A program made the position numbers and the translations under genes. Below the pieces are notes generated by a model. That model was not told where the DNA came from and did no database searches. It saw only the letters and a list, made by a program, of their open reading frames with translations. DNA of 63,934 nt, counting the filler. It is 4 parts of 4 records of this genome, joined end to end, with 100 filler letters (N's around TTAATTAATTAA, not from the genome) between each part and the next. Parts side by side here need not be neighbours in the genome. Positions count along the whole stretch, not along the records: positions 25,849 to 49,024 come from SRR20825006_446; 3 more parts are not named here. One strand, given 5' to 3'. Shown here one piece after another: positions 9,169 through 52,600 of this stretch. Numbering within the stretch: position 1 is the stretch's first letter; every line of letters begins with the position of its first letter.

Positions 9169-9268
9169 NNNNNNNNNNNNNNNNNNNNNNNNNNNNNNNN
9201 NNNNNNNNNNNNTTAATTAATTAANNNNNNNNNNNNNNNNNNNNNNNNNNNNNNNNNNNNNNNNNNNN
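9169..9268. other. Artificial contig-joining spacer
   Basis: N44-TTAATTAATTAA-N44 (stops in all six frames), with an abrupt composition change across it. Confidence 0.98.
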
Positions 9269-46541: not shown

Positions 46542-47252
46542 ATGCGCCAATCACGGCGAGCGCCCCCCATTATCAATGCGCCTCCCTTTGTAACCGCATT
46601 GGCGCTCGCCATTGTTGCAATGCACGGACTGAGACTCATCACGGGCTCCGCGCTGGACCCGCTTTTCGTGGATGTAGGCGCAGTCTTCCCGGATCGCTTC
46701 TGGGGCTGGATAGGCGGTTCTCCCATTGCTGGAGGCTATGCTCCGTATGGAAATGCGCTGGATGCGCTGATTCCCCTTGCGGGAACGGCGCTGGTTCACG
46801 GCAGCTGGTCCCATGTCCTCATGAATACAGTAATGCTGATTGCGGTCGGCAAGCCGGTCTATGCTGTGATCGAGCGAATCGCGCGATCTCGCCTCAGCAT
46901 CAATCTGGCCTTTCTCGGCCTGTTTGTGGTGAGCGTCGTGGGTGGCTCCGTTGCCCATCTCCTGGCTCACTATCCGGATGGGCCACCGGCCATCGGGGCC
47001 TCAGGTGGCGTCTCCGGCCTGATTGCCGGGGCTCTGATGATCCAGAATGGGCTTCCCGTCAGGCTTCTGGACCGAAAATTCCTGACGACGAGCGCGGTCT
47101 TTTTTGTCGGCAACCTGATTCTCGCCTTCCTGGGGCCTTCGCTGTTCGGCTCGGCAATCGCCTGGCAGGCCCATATTGGTGGATACATCGCCGGGGCCCT
47201 GTTGTTCCGGTACCTCGCACGCAATCTCGGCCGGGCACAATTTCACGCCTGA
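46542..47252 (+). CDS. Rhomboid intramembrane serine protease
   Basis: HGSWSHVLMN, IGASGG and AWQAHIGG. Confidence 0.92.
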   Translation: MRQSRRAPPIINAPPFVTALALAIVAMHGLRLITGSALDPLFVDVGAVFPDRFWGWIGGSPIAGGYAPYGNALDALIPLAGTALVHGSWSHVLMNTVMLIAVGKPVYAVIERIARSRLSINLAFLGLFVVSVVGGSVAHLLAHYPDGPPAIGASGGVSGLIAGALMIQNGLPVRLLDRKFLTTSAVFFVGNLILAFLGPSLFGSAIAWQAHIGGYIAGALLFRYLARNLGRAQFHA

Positions 47253-47333
47253 TCGCGTCATGATTGGAATTATGATAGGCTTTCTGAAAATCAGGCACTC
47301 AAAAAAGGGGCCGTATGCACAGGGAGGCAATGG

Positions 47334-47768
47334 ATGACCATCGACCAAATTCTGAAAGACAAGGGATTCGCCATCATTTCGGTGAAGGCCGGCGAAACAT
47401 TGGCGGCCGCAGCCCGCACGCTGGATGGTAAGCGAATCGGCGCGGTGGTCGCGTTGGACGATGATGGCACCATCATCGGCGTATTGTCTGAGCGGGATAT
47501 TGTGCGCCATGTGGCGCGTCAGGGTGCCATGGCGCTGGAATTGAACGTTGGCGACGCGATGACACGCGACGTGATCAAGGTCGAATCGACCACCAAGATA
47601 GATGACGCGTTGCAGCTTATGACCGACAGGAGGATTCGTCATTTGCCCGTCATGACAGACGGACGCCTCGTCGGGGTGATCTCGATCGGGGATCTGGTGA
47701 AGTGGAAGATCGCTGAAACGGAAGCTGAAGCAGAAGCGATGAAATCGTACCTGTCCGCTCAGTATTAG
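47334..47768 (+). CDS. CBS domain-containing protein
   Basis: GVLSERDIV, RIRHLPV and SIGDLVK. Confidence 0.93.
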   Translation: MTIDQILKDKGFAIISVKAGETLAAAARTLDGKRIGAVVALDDDGTIIGVLSERDIVRHVARQGAMALELNVGDAMTRDVIKVESTTKIDDALQLMTDRRIRHLPVMTDGRLVGVISIGDLVKWKIAETEAEAEAMKSYLSAQY

Positions 47769-47874
47769 GGGGCAGCCCCCGTATTCATTGGGCTTTTGGG
47801 ATTGGCCGGCAGGAAGCCGCGACAAGCTTCCGTCTTTTTCCTGCAGTTTTGTGATGAATTCCTGCATTAGGGGG

Positions 47875-47903
47875 TTGCCGCATCCGGGGGGCGGGGGTAC
47901 ATC
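47875..47903 (+). promoter_or_regulatory. rrn promoter copy 1
   Basis: TTGCCG-N17-TACATC followed by a GC-rich discriminator. Confidence 0.6.
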
Positions 47904-48131
47904 GCCACCTCCGCTGACGAGGCCTTCGGGTTTCAGACGCGGGGCCCGGTAACGGCGCACCTGATTGGTTCGGAAGTTTTCTAATCTTCCCCAGACAGAG
48001 CTCGATATCGGTTCCCTGAAAATCGCTCGGATCTGCGAGCCGGACATGTTCGGCCAACGGGATCTTTTGCGCTGTAAACATAGCAGGATGGATGGTTGAA
48101 CATTCTACTGCACACAGCGCAGAAAAGGGTG

Positions 48132-48160
48132 TTGACGGGAAGAACGGCGGTCCATATAAG
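48132..48160 (+). promoter_or_regulatory. rrn promoter copy 2
   Basis: TTGACG-N17-TATAAG-CCGCC. Confidence 0.85.
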
Positions 48161-48383
48161 CCGCCACTCGCTGACGAGTTCTACGGATCTCTGGGGCGGC
48201 CCGGCACCGGGTTCTCTGAATGGCTTGGAAGTTTCTATTCTTCCCCAATCAGAGCGTCGATGTCGGTTCCTCGAAACGCTCGAATTTGCGGGCCGGATGA
48301 TTTCGGCAGGCTGGTTCATTTGCGCCAAAATTGAAGCGGAAACGGTGCCTGGCACCTAACTGCAGAAGAGGCGGAAAAGAGTG

Positions 48384-48412
48384 TTGACGGGAAGAAGGGC
48401 GGTCCATATAAG
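48384..48412 (+). promoter_or_regulatory. rrn promoter copy 3
   Basis: TTGACG-N17-TATAAG-CCGCC. Confidence 0.85.
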
Positions 48413-48642
48413 CCGCCCCTTCCGCAGACGACGCCCTCGGGCATCTGAAGCGGGCCCGCTGAAAAGCTCACCTGATTGGTGAAAAAGTTCTTGAACTTTT
48501 CGTCGAACAGGGGCTATATATGCGGTTCCTCGAAACGCTCGAATTTGCGAGCCGGATCTTTTCGGCAAGTGGTTCTTTTGCGCTTAAATTGATGCGGGAA
48601 CGGTGGTTAAACACTCAACTGCAGAAGGCGCGAAAAAGAGTG

Positions 48643-48671
48643 TTGACGGGCTAAGCGGCGGCCCATATAAG
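48643..48671 (+). promoter_or_regulatory. rrn promoter copy 4 (proximal)
   Basis: TTGACG-N17-TATAAG-CCGCC. Confidence 0.88.
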
Positions 48672-48730
48672 CCGCCTCTTCCGGACGGGCCCACGGGCTT
48701 CTGATGGAGACCTTCGGAGCTTCGGTTCCA

Positions 48731-48745
48731 GCTGTTTGACATCGT
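48731..48745 (+). promoter_or_regulatory. boxA-like antitermination element of the rrn leader
   Basis: GCTGTTTGACATCGT, about 60 nt downstream of the proximal promoter. Confidence 0.7.
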
Positions 48746-48976
48746 AAGAGATTAGGAAGAGAAACGCAGGCGGCGTGATGGCTTGCGGACACGGGCTTCG
48801 GCCACGGTCCAAACGATCGCGACGGATGCGTTTCTTAAGAGAAAATTCTTTTTCCATCGGTTGGGTTTCGGCCCGGCCTTTGTGACTAAGGGTTTCTCGT
48901 CAAAGAACGCAATACTTGATGCTTAACAGCTAAAGTAGCCGTCCATATTCCAATGGATGGTATCGTCAGATCAACT

Positions 48977-49024
48977 CAACTTGAGAGTTTGATTCTGGCT
49001 CAGAACGAACGCTGGCGGCAGGCT
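48977..49024 (+). rRNA. rrs: 16S rRNA, 5' end (cut by contig end)
   Basis: CAACTTGAGAGTTTGATTCTGGCTCAGAACGAACGCTGGCGGCAGGC, an alphaproteobacterial-type 5' end. Confidence 0.97.
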
Positions 49025-49124
49025 NNNNNNNNNNNNNNNNNNNNNNNNNNNNNNNNNNNNNNNNNNNNTTAATTAATTAANNNNNNNNNNNNNNNNNNNN
49101 NNNNNNNNNNNNNNNNNNNNNNNN
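49025..49124. other. Artificial contig-joining spacer
   Basis: N44-TTAATTAATTAA-N44. Confidence 0.98.
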
Positions 49125-49147
49125 TGGGTTGAGGCTCTCGAAACCCA
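49125..49147. repeat. REP-like palindromic element at contig end
   Basis: TGGGTTGAGGCTCTCGAAACCCA hairpin resembling the TGAG..TCGAA short dispersed repeats of Bacteroidota. Confidence 0.4.
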
Positions 49148-49575
49148 CTAACGATAAATGTAATTCGTGAATTGGCAACCCTAATTGTTCATGTCTCGAA
49201 CACTTATGACTCCAGACCCATAATACCAAGCAAGAAGGTGTCGTCATGGAATCTAATTAAAATTTGGATGTTCTATCGTTGAATGGAATTTTGTTGAGTT
49301 TTGCCTAAAGGATGATTTTATCCAATGCATTTAAACAGACTTTTTTGTCACCTAAACGCTAAATCACGTATTTCTACGTGGTGTAAGTTTATAGGAAAGC
49401 CATATCATTGTAAAAACATTCAACACTTCACTGAAAAAACCGAGGAGGGGTGAAATCCCTCTCAGAGTAGTCATTTTGGTTACTACGCTATAAAGGTCGT
49501 TGCATTATGCTTCGACCTTTTGCTTTTTACCCTTTTTTAAAGCTTAGGAATCTCGGACTTGAATTTCAACGAAAC

Positions 49576-49612
49576 AAAAAAGGCCGTTCTTATCAAAAAC
49601 GACCTTTTCTTC
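49576..49612 (-). terminator. Terminator downstream of the adhesin gene
   Basis: AAAAAAGGCCGTT...AACGACCTTTT. Confidence 0.6.
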
Positions 49613-49629
49613 GTTCTTTCGATTTTTTG

Positions 49630-52600
49630 CTAATCTCTAATCAACGTCACGTTTCCATGAAGTTCACCCGATTTATTGTAGACATCCACATAAGTGATTT
49701 TCCAGAAGTACACCCCTTCGCTAACATCATTTCCATTCGGTGTTGTTCCGTCCCACCCTTGTTTGAAGTCGATGGTTTCAAAAACAACATTCCCCCAACG
49801 GTTTAGAATAATAAGGTTGTAATCCCGAATACTTAAAATTTCAATTGGAATAAAGAATTCGTTCGCACCATCGCCATTTGGAGTAAAGACATTTGGCATC
49901 GTAATAACCACGCATCCCGCAGCTTCATTCTGTATGCTTACATCAACGGAAATACTATTTGTACAACCGTTTGCATCCATCACAACCACACTGTACGTTC
50001 CGACAGGTAATCCAGTGATCAGCGTATCAGTTCCACCATTATTCCATAAATAAGTATACCCTGGTGTTCCTCCGGTTGCGTTCACCGTCGCAATTCCACT
50101 ACTATCTCCAAAGCAAATCGGAGAAGAGAAAGCAGTAAGCGAAATCGGATCAGCAGGTTCATTCACAACTGTTGCTAAAGACGCTGTACATCCGTTTGTG
50201 TCTGTAACAACTAACGTATAAATTCCAGCGAATAAAGTATCAATCGTTAAGACTGTATCTCCAGTATTCCACAAATATGTGTATCCGGGAGTTCCGCCAG
50301 TTACGGTTGCGTCTATGCTACCATTGTTCCCGCCGTTGCAAAGCACAGGCAACATAGAAGTGGTGATGTCAATAGGAGCGAGTGGTTGAGTAATAACCGC
50401 AGAGATTGTGTCGGTACAATTATCTGCGTCTGTTACAACTAATGCGTAAGTTCCTGCGGTAATATTTACCAAATCTTGATTCGTACTCGAGTTACTCCAT
50501 AGATAAGAATACGGTTGAACGCCGCCTGTAGCAGTAACGTCAATTGATCCTGTTGCCGCACCGAAGCACAAAACATCGACGTGAGTCTCAGTAAGAATGA
50601 TTTCCGTGGGTTGTAAAATAGTATCGGTGTATGTTAACTCACACAAATTATCATCAGTAACTGTTACGGTATAAATTCCAGGACCCAAATCTTGGAGATC
50701 TTGTGTAGTTTCTCCGTTGCTCCATAAATAAGTATACGGTCCCGTGCCACCTGTAACAGTAATGTCAAGCGCCCCAATTGTATCTCCGTAACACGTTGGC
50801 GTTTTGATGCCTGTTATGGAAATCGGAGCTGCGGGTTGAGCAATGACTGCGGTTAACGAATCGATACAACCATTCGTATCGGTGACAATCACAGTATATG
50901 ATCCCGAAAGAAGCGAATCTAAATCTTGTAAAGTGTCGCCAGTATTCCAACTATATGAATAGCCAGGAGTTCCACCAGTTACAGAAAGGTCGATACTTCC
51001 ATTGTCTCCTCCGAAACAAAGAACAGCTACCTGAGTCGAAGACAAGTTCAACGGTGCAGTTGGCTGTGTAATAACGATCGAGATAGTGTCCACACAGTTA
51101 TTCGTGTCCACGACTGTCAATGAATAGGTTCCCAATGGAATTCCTGTTAAATCCTCCGTTACATCTCCAGTATTCCAAAGATATGAGTACGGTTGAACTC
51201 CACCAGTAGTCGTTACATCAATAGAGCCAGTTGAATCGCCAAAGCACAAAATGTTCACATGTGTTTCGGTGAGAATAAGTTCTGTTGGTTGGAAAATAGT
51301 ATCCACAAACGAAACTTGACACATATTGTCGTCAGTAACAACCACCGAATAGATTCCTTCGCCGAGGTTTTGTATGTCCTGTGTAATTTCTCCTCCACTC
51401 CATAAGTATGTGTATGGTGCAGTGCCTCCCGCTACTTCAATGTCAATTTCACCGATAGAATCGTTGAAACATAAAATATCGACTTTCGAATTGGATGAAA
51501 TGTATAAAGCGGTATCTGGTTGATCAATAACGAAGGACATAAATCCGCCACATCCATTTGTATCAACAACATTTACAAAATATGGTCCAGCAGGGATGTT
51601 TGTAAGATCCTGCGTTGTTGCACCATTACTCCAATCATAAACATAACCGGGCGTTCCGTTAGTTAACGAGATATCAATTGCTCCAGTTGAATCTGAATAA
51701 CACAATACATCTGTGTGAACATCTGAAATTAAAATAGCGTCTGGATCAGTAACTGCAATACTCAAGGTATCAACGCAACCATTCGTGTCAACCACTGTAA
51801 CAAAGTAAAGTCCAGCGAATAAGTTATTAATGTCCTGTGTGAATTGCCCATTATTCCAACTATAGGTATATCCTGGAGTTCCACCAGAAACTGTTAAATC
51901 GATAGAACCTTGCGTACCGTTCTGACAAACAGGATTGATATGCGTTTCAGTTAACAAGAGCGGCGTTGGTTGGTTAATGTCGACCACGAAGCTTTGATTA
52001 CAGTTGTTTGAATCCGAAACGACTACTGTATACGATCCAGCTCCCAATCCAGTTAAATCTTCCGTCGTTTCACCGTTAGACCATAAATAAGTGTAAGGAG
52101 CAACTCCTCCAGTTACCGTTAGATCAAGCGTCGCTGTAGAATCATCAAAACACAATATTTCTGTTGTAACAGCGGTAATTGTCATTGAATCTAAGGGCTG
52201 ATTAACAACGAATGAAGCAATATTCATACATCCATTCACATCTGTAACTGTATCTGTGTATGTTCCTGCCCCAAGATCGATTAAATCTTCCAACGTGATC
52301 CCATTCGACCAAGAATAGGTGTAAGGTGCAGTTCCTCCAGTAATTGTAGCGTCGATAGCTCCTGTTGTGTCAGAATAGCAAAGAATATCCGAAACAACGG
52401 CTGTAATTGAAATAGTATCTGGTTGAACTAAGGTAACACTGTCCATTGCAATACAACCGTTACTATCTGTTACAGTCACCACATGCGTTCCTGCATCTAA
52501 GTTGGTAATTGAATCAGTAATTTGTAATCCAGGCGTCCAGAGATATGAATAAGGGAAGACACCGCCAGAAACGGTAACATCAGCACTTCCATCCATTGCG

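Follow-up and report, generated by a model that had tools for sequence, protein, structure and literature searches.

The window analysed here (the whole stretch of DNA under study, 63,934 nt) contains, on the contig SRR20825006_446, a ~1.2-kb spacer between a gene for a CBS-domain protein and the 5′ end of a 16S rRNA (ribosomal RNA) gene. This spacer carries three near-identical sigma-70-type promoters (TTGACGGG-N-CCATATAAGCCGCC), starting at positions 48132, 48384 and 48643, and a diverged distal promoter at 47875, all of them located directly upstream of the 16S gene and in the same orientation. Each strong promoter is the downstream end of a ~255-bp unit that also contains a structured leader segment, which we designated X. 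Comparison with related genomes establishes the anatomy of this array, the homology of its units, their history and the selective conservation of the promoters. We read the spacer as several housekeeping-sigma (sigma-70 type) promoters in tandem, all feeding a single rRNA (rrn) operon, and we put the probability of this reading at roughly 65%.

All five promoter-like elements of the spacer contain a −35/−10 pair at 17-nt spacing: TTGACG/TATAAG in the three strong copies (Pa, Pb and Pc, from distal to proximal), TTGCCG/TACATC in the distal element (P0) and TTGAAC/CTATAT in an element within the proximal leader segment (PX). Every strong −10 is followed by a CCGCC discriminator and the sequence AAAAAG(A/G)G precedes every −35, both being conserved in all copies. 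P0, Pa, Pb and Pc follow each other at distances of 257, 252 and 259 bp. The pattern TTGACGGGN6GGCGGNCCATATAAGCCGCC has three matches in the window, all in the spacer, with 0.00 expected from 100 shuffles. The DNA between the promoters is homologous as well: a repeat search returned repeat families spaced 252–259 bp, the alignment of four units has a mean column identity of 73%, and self-BLAST yields a 546-nt alignment at an offset of 257 with 72% identity. Tandem Repeats Finder reported no array at the spacer, where the copies are only ~72% alike. The word GCTGTTTGACATCG, which we take to be a boxA by its consensus, occurs in the spacer only at 48731, i.e. after the last promoter copy, and no boxA-like site with up to three mismatches was found within the repeats. 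Beyond this family, other families of the order retain the 45 nt that begin at 48731 (query positions 952–997), and the boxA-like word is also conserved in Henriciella. An earlier first-pass annotation of the window, made by a model from the sequence alone, had described tandem promoters at these four positions, homologous DNA between them and a boxA behind the last copy only; the letters confirm its coordinates, hexamers, 17-nt spacers and spacings, and the alignments and the single boxA-like site agree with the rest.

The same architecture recurs across the genus Hyphomonas. A scan with the promoter pattern of one genome per species returned 69 stretches, mostly from Hyphomonas, with some from Henriciella and Hirschia. 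The pattern lies upstream of the 16S start wherever the contig reaches far enough, at a distance of 313–380 nt in nearly all Hyphomonas and Henriciella loci with a readable distance (the exceptions are Hirschia, with 716 nt, and two loci, L035 and L036, in which the last exact match lies ~490 nt away). Using tblastn, the CBS gene was found upstream of 16S in 19 of 20 loci of relatives, the remaining locus being cut. While this CBS–16S synteny stays, the spacer lengthens stepwise with the number of strong copies, from 633–707 bp with one copy (12 loci, both ends readable), through 904 bp with two (one locus, spacing 196) and ~1213 bp with three (the window and L001), to ~1460 bp with four (L003 and L004). 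In the 20-locus sample, at least two strong copies are present in five loci and one in the 14 others with enough upstream sequence; one locus is cut. A promoter HMM (hidden Markov model) at a threshold of ≥30 bits finds two hits in eight of the 69 stretches, three in nine and four in five (22 with at least two), one hit in 44 and none in three; these copy counts are lower bounds, several contigs beginning too near the promoter. BLAST matches of single-promoter species begin at query positions 642–704. No units were found elsewhere in the genome: the nearest genome, G001, carries the region at one place, and each genome has one pattern stretch, except for Hirschia. Interspersed mobile repeats, similar to miniature inverted-repeat transposable elements or repetitive extragenic palindromes, were considered and rejected, the copies not being dispersed and the Hirschia stretches each preceding a 16S gene.

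An alignment of single-copy spacers already contains three conserved promoter-like elements, namely P0, PX and the strong proximal promoter. P0 has the genus form TTGCGG-N17-TATCCC or TATCTC and lies 255–258 bp upstream of the first strong copy in all 18 loci checked. As P0 is orthologous across the genus, the window holds three strong copies plus P0. The first-pass annotation had treated the element at 47875 as a member of the amplified set, which it is not, being the genus-wide P0 (18/18 loci); the earlier count of four promoters is right for three strong copies and P0, and it overlooked PX as a fifth promoter-like element. PX (TTGNNN-N17-CTATAT) occurs once per locus and at a fixed place in 45 of the 59 loci with enough upstream sequence, including those of Henriciella.

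The history of the units was read from a maximum-likelihood tree of 50 units, each consisting of an X segment and its downstream promoter. In this tree, the single unit of basal species clusters with the proximal unit (X1) of array species (100/99 support), and another clade, likewise at 100/99, unites all extra units of the ~252-bp arrays. This clade, together with the ~255-bp alignment at 72–73% identity, establishes that the copies are related by duplication. Within the latter clade, position in the array, rather than species, decides how the units cluster: the distal unit of the window falls with the distal unit of H. atlantica, and its middle unit with the two middle units of H. atlantica. 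Branches measure 0.1–0.3. Because of this position-wise clustering and the long branches, the copies must be old and not homogenised. Fourth copies were gained independently by H. atlantica and by the lineage of H. pacifica and H. beringensis, and the ~195-bp arrays of the H. jannaschiana group represent a separate duplication. The ancestral control region of Hyphomonas consisted of P0, a ~215-bp structured X segment with PX inside, one strong promoter, the boxA leader and 16S. One subclade then duplicated the ~255-bp unit of X and strong promoter, which left the present array with two extra copies and those of H. atlantica, H. pacifica and H. beringensis with three. The ~195-bp units and the ~158-bp units of Henriciella appear to have been amplified separately.

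Conservation within these old units is concentrated on the promoter cores. Among 16 non-proximal units from six genomes, the −35, the −10 and the discriminator are 100% identical in all pairs, compared with 83% identity for the 17-nt spacer and 57% for the X segment. By conservation, the promoter window ranks second of 237 windows of equal width, and TATAAG, which has no T at the final −10 position, is found in every strong copy. Since the units are old and not homogenised, this pattern indicates purifying selection on exactly those positions that RNA polymerase reads. The array as a whole is well conserved and very probably functional.

The X segments are conserved in another way, as RNA structure. 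RNAalifold, applied to 36 units, returned three hairpins (H1, H2 and H4) in which 93% of the cells are paired, compared with 34–45% when the partners are slid, and which contain 53 compensatory cells, compared with 7–20 in the slid controls; their score was reached by none of 500 shuffles. Over all covariation analyses of X, the paired fraction is 88–93% (slid, 34–46%) and the number of compensatory cells 53–72 (slid, 7–28). Adding an outer stem taken from single-sequence folds results in a ~60-nt hairpin just upstream of each strong promoter (Table 1), with a stem that is 79% paired and shows C-G to G-C swaps. This hairpin base-pairs a U-tract (TTTTGCGC) with an A-tract (GCGCGAAAAA), its 3′ side being the A-tract directly before the next −35. 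Taken alone, the A-tract would pass for a UP-like element, and constraints on DNA as well as on RNA may act on it. No hairpin of the consensus fold involves −35, −10 or discriminator positions. The energies of the single-sequence folds are unremarkable (z-scores of −2.3 to +0.4). Frequent G-U pairs fit RNA of the + strand, which indicates that the inter-promoter segments are transcribed towards 16S.

In relatives, such a control region serves a single operon: five of five Hyphomonas genomes have one full-length 16S match, in a large contig, in line with the proposal of the first-pass annotation that the array belongs to a low-copy operon. Every promoter copy would load RNA polymerase; transcripts from upstream copies would read through the downstream promoters, and the repeats would make up a long 5′ leader, to be cut away in processing. 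The extra loading sites would raise or broaden the output of the sole rrn operon. The final G of the −10, in place of a T, and the G+C-rich discriminator suggest by analogy that a single copy has probably little strength of its own and depends on CarD/CdnL and guanosine tetraphosphate (ppGpp). If single promoters are weak, their multiplication offers a plausible route to higher capacity. The rRNA promoters of Rhodobacter sphaeroides are described as intrinsically weak and activated by CarD (PMC7703639). CdnL is located at the rrnA promoter in Caulobacter, where less rRNA is transcribed once CdnL is depleted (PMC5324124). The nearest genome, G001, encodes a CarD-like frame of 179 aa (PF02559, 52 bits).

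A broader interpretation can be offered more tentatively. Promoter dosage might replace gene dosage in these bacteria, with the promoter–leader module having been repeatedly selected in Hyphomonadaceae with one operon, where it would set the rRNA capacity of a species. It is conceivable that at least three separate amplifications (of ~255, ~195 and ~158 bp), and a ~90-bp case in a neighbouring family, reflect such a process. The covarying hairpins might then be its RNA-level part and could, speculatively, insulate or time the firing of downstream promoters under passing transcripts.

Transcript data bear on the array through six RNA-library runs that contain 78–83% of the sampled words, four of which were mapped, as assembled contigs only. 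These RNA contigs join the whole array to 16S as one piece, and in two of the four runs they break across P0 with a 7- to 15-fold step in depth. For X17, a contig spans 47925–49023 at a depth of 74, and the CBS contig ends at 47860 at a depth of 5; for X20, a contig spans 47918–49023 at a depth of 172, and another ends at 47888 at a depth of 23. The loose end at 47925 in X17 resembles what we take to be sequencing adapter, which suggests a real fragment end at this site. These breaks hint, weakly, that P0 fires (with a predicted start near 47910) and that its transcript reads through all units into 16S.

Several observations weigh against our reading. Assembled contigs cannot reveal starts, strand or levels. 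The contigs of X15 and X19 run unbroken from the CBS gene into the leader, possibly as a result of DNA carry-over or read-through, and these two runs therefore lend no support to a start at P0. A promoter scan of the region by E. coli rules returned no sites, because the rule demands a T at the final position of the −10, and the −10s here end in G or C. The 69 loci were found through the promoter pattern itself, which guarantees one copy per locus and leaves the extra copies unguaranteed. Promoter number does not track rrn copy number: there are one (G019, G008), two (G014), three (G001) or four (G016) strong copies per genome, with the rrn copy number at one in all five, so that a comparison of the two, put forward in the first-pass annotation, found no relation. 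Given one operon throughout, the array is no counterpart of a change in rrn copy number within the genus. Lastly, transcription from upstream may occlude downstream promoters, and output need not rise with the number of copies.

X19 also shows a sharp change in depth closer to 16S, from ~350 over 47000–48823 to 7,000–14,000 in contigs that begin at 48794–48849. Such a rise could mean that the pre-16S leader is processed close to the inverted repeat at 48760–48835; contigs of other strains may add to the depth.

Other explanations account for parts of these data. The repeats might mainly be small structured RNA genes with their own promoters, whose product is released or terminated while read-through into 16S is incidental. 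Each unit does consist of a promoter followed by covarying hairpins, and the region contains four terminator-like sites, compared with 1.0 expected, two of them within units (48207–48228 and 48537–48552). These two are weak, however, with stems of 5–7 bp and broken T-runs. The folds have no stem followed by a U-run at the ends of the units, the long hairpin having its U on the 5′ side and its A on the 3′ side. As the RNA contigs connect the array to 16S, the units are confined to the rrn locus and no Rfam family was matched, we consider this explanation unlikely. A little less likely still is that transcription starts at P0 and the proximal promoter alone, and that the other cores are retained as sites where RNA polymerase, CdnL or some further factor binds (a sink or landing pad), or else as leader RNA sequence. 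The A-tract before each −35 doubles as the 3′ side of a conserved RNA hairpin, and part of the conservation must therefore lie at the RNA level. The invariant positions, on the other hand, are exactly the −35, the −10 and the discriminator, at a fixed 17-nt spacing filled with variable letters, which is the signature of promoter recognition, and the consensus-fold hairpins avoid them.

Two further possibilities concern the origin of the copies. They could be neutral products of slippage or unequal crossing-over that look conserved for being young or gene-converted, as would fit the variation in copy number between close species and the fourth copy gained separately in two lineages. Outside the promoter, units that share a genome are only ~57% alike; they cluster by position, and are therefore old and not homogenised, which makes this quite improbable. 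The array could also be an assembly artefact, with units stitched together from different loci or strains, given that the window concatenates contigs and that the array contig ends within 16S, 48 nt into the gene. Yet G001 carries the 1245-nt region at 99% identity, and identical order and spacing are found in independent isolate and MAG (metagenome-assembled genome) assemblies, on contigs of up to 868 kb. Matching architectures are present in the independent assemblies L001, L002, L044, L057, L059, L072 and L077, and Hyphomonas sp. L-53-1-40 (868-kb contig) and several MAGs also have three copies at spacings of 252 and 259. Fourteen DNA or unclassified runs from ten studies contain 100% of the sampled words, although many of these runs may represent the source sample itself. 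At more than 20% difference, the units are too diverged to have collapsed, so that collapse or stitching is very unlikely, and contigs of four RNA runs span the array. Mis-assembly, a concern already raised in the first-pass annotation, thus carries next to no weight, the independent assemblies indicating that the array is not collapsed.

Table 1. Features of the spacer and its flanks (positions in the window; empty cells, no entry).
Feature	Position	Strand	Basis or remark
Gene for CBS-domain protein, 144 aa	47334..47768	+	Pfam PF00571, E 3e-26; upstream neighbour of the array
Terminator-like hairpin with T-run, end of CBS gene transcript	47812..47840	+	Consensus scan; RNA contigs of the CBS gene end at 47860 (X17) and 47888 (X20)
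P0, distal promoter: −35 TTGCCG 47875–47880, 17-nt spacer, −10 TACATC 47898–47903	47875..47903	+	
Leader module X3 (distal copy): H1 47909–47944, long hairpin 48066–48123; PX decayed	47904..48131	+	Alignments, folds, covariation
Pa, strong promoter: TTGACG 48132–48137, 17-nt spacer, TATAAG 48155–48160, CCGCC discriminator	48132..48165	+	Promoter HMM, 65 bits
Leader module X2 (middle copy): H1 48169–48198, long hairpin 48319–48377; PX decayed	48166..48383	+	Alignments, folds
Pb, strong promoter: TTGACG 48384–48389, TATAAG 48407–48412, CCGCC	48384..48417	+	Promoter HMM, 66 bits
Leader module X1 (proximal copy): H1 48422–48453, long hairpin 48576–48635	48418..48642	+	Unit tree, BLAST
PX, putative promoter-like element within X1: TTGAAC, 17-nt spacer, CTATAT	48491..48519	+	Fixed place across loci
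Pc, strong proximal promoter, genus-wide rrn promoter, 334 nt 5′ of 16S start	48643..48676	+	Promoter HMM, 72 bits
Unique proximal leader: boxA-like word 48731–48744, imperfect inverted repeat 48760–48785 with 48810–48835	48677..48976	+	
16S rRNA gene, 5′ end, stopped by contig end	48977..49024	+	Rfam RF00177, model positions 1–48, E 1e-7

The spacer and its surroundings were also searched for other features. A coding spacer was rejected, its four open reading frames having no Pfam family. Rfam returned nothing at gathering scores across the window, and matches in the spacer at E values up to 10 consist of the 16S stub and chance matches only. No tRNA genes were found in 47000–52000. The window itself is composed of four contigs joined by runs of N and a TTAATTAATTAA linker, with joints at 9213, 25793 and 49069. 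The G+C contents of these contigs are ~55%, 39%, 59% and 41%, the array being located on the 59% piece (roughly 25.85–49.02 kb), and the four may derive from different organisms (a mixed bin, or a host with associates).

Arrays and related arrangements are found upstream of 16S in other lineages of the order as well. In Henriciella, arrays of three to five rrn promoters at ~158-bp spacing lie downstream of a PX-like element (L053:6360-7316, L081:880-1991, L040, L055, L060, L070, L075 and L085), with −10 hexamers that vary among copies (TAGAAG, TAAAAG, TATATG and TATAAG). In two genomes from another family, G031 and G035, direct repeats of ~90 bp carry three TTGACACGG promoters, two of them with a TACATCGCCGCC (TACATC) −10, some 300–450 nt 5′ of 16S (L100:1530-1770 and L099:1595-1830); this looks like a further separate duplication of rrn promoters. 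The promoter is the part that the arrays with ~255-, ~195-, ~158- and ~90-bp units have in common. Five other families, represented by 16 genomes, were compared over the 2 kb that precede 16S: the Hyphomonas promoter HMM gave two weak hits (18.6 and 11.2 bits), and self-BLAST found repeats in three of the 16 genomes. The complete genome G033, from another family, contains a 282-bp direct repeat with 67% identity 1.0–1.5 kb upstream of 16S (L093:517-1068). Hirschia maritima has the promoter 716 nt before 16S on four contigs (L023, L039, L061 and L087), in one copy where the upstream sequence is readable. This species may possess several rrn operons, each behind a single strong promoter, and so show the opposite of what is seen in Hyphomonas.

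Ribosome output can be raised by more rrn operons or by more promoters per operon, and the second route is documented mainly in mycobacteria. Hyphomonas (one to four copies, one operon) and Henriciella (three to five copies) provide a natural, culturable series that differs almost only in promoter copy number. Such a series allows direct tests of the capacity gained per promoter, of interference between tandem promoters and of the role of a repeated structured leader. For annotators, it means that long, repeat-rich spacers before 16S are to be expected in Hyphomonadaceae and ought not to be marked as mis-assemblies.

Tandem promoters upstream of rRNA genes are known from several systems. Streptomyces coelicolor rrnD has four promoters, and promoters on direct repeats are found in the rRNA operon repeats of Halobacterium and in the spacer promoters of eukaryotic rDNA. 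All of these lie in tandem upstream of rRNA genes, but the polymerases and domains of life differ, so that the likeness is one of analogy only. In the P1–P2 region of E. coli rrn operons, the promoters are ~120 bp apart and combine an UP element, a G+C-rich discriminator and a boxA antitermination leader. The use of P1 and P2 by these operons is described in PMC5179076. The array shares with them the tandem promoters before 16S, an A-rich tract before the −35, a G+C-rich discriminator and a boxA-like word after the last promoter. It differs in that E. coli has two non-homologous promoters and seven operons, whereas here there are three homologous promoters and two others, one operon, and a −10 without the final T. 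Closer in sequence are rrnA, rrnB and rrnC of Rhodobacter sphaeroides, which likewise have a −35 with TTG, a −10 that begins with TA and lacks the final T, an A+T-rich upstream tract and a G+C-rich discriminator (PMC7703639). There, in contrast, three operons have one mapped promoter each, and the part of the source available describes no repeat array (PMC7703639).

The closest precedent is mycobacterial rrnA, whose tandem promoters number two in M. tuberculosis and five in M. chelonae, a difference for which promoter duplication has been invoked (PMC10218544). The multiple promoters were interpreted there as a means of keeping rRNA synthesis flexible while the number of operons stays minimal (PMC10218544). 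Shared with the array described here are one or few operons, tandem promoters, a promoter number that varies within the genus and duplication as the proposed origin. The kind of arrangement is therefore already known. Our literature search found no description for Hyphomonas or Hyphomonadaceae, and no duplication of rRNA-operon promoters outside mycobacteria; its coverage excluded most subscription journals, and neither result is proof of absence. The novelty claimed in the first-pass annotation, an architecture undescribed for Hyphomonadaceae-like bacteria, accordingly holds for the family within the reach of this search and does not extend to tandem duplicated rrn promoters as such, which the mycobacterial work documents (PMC10218544). 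The two systems differ in phylum and promoter sequence, and the array, known here from sequence, has a ~255-bp unit with a structured leader, to which P0 and PX are added. What is new is the lineage, this ~255-bp unit with its structured leader, and the fact that members of the family amplified such units several times, apparently separately, within a kind of rrn control region that mycobacteria had already made familiar.

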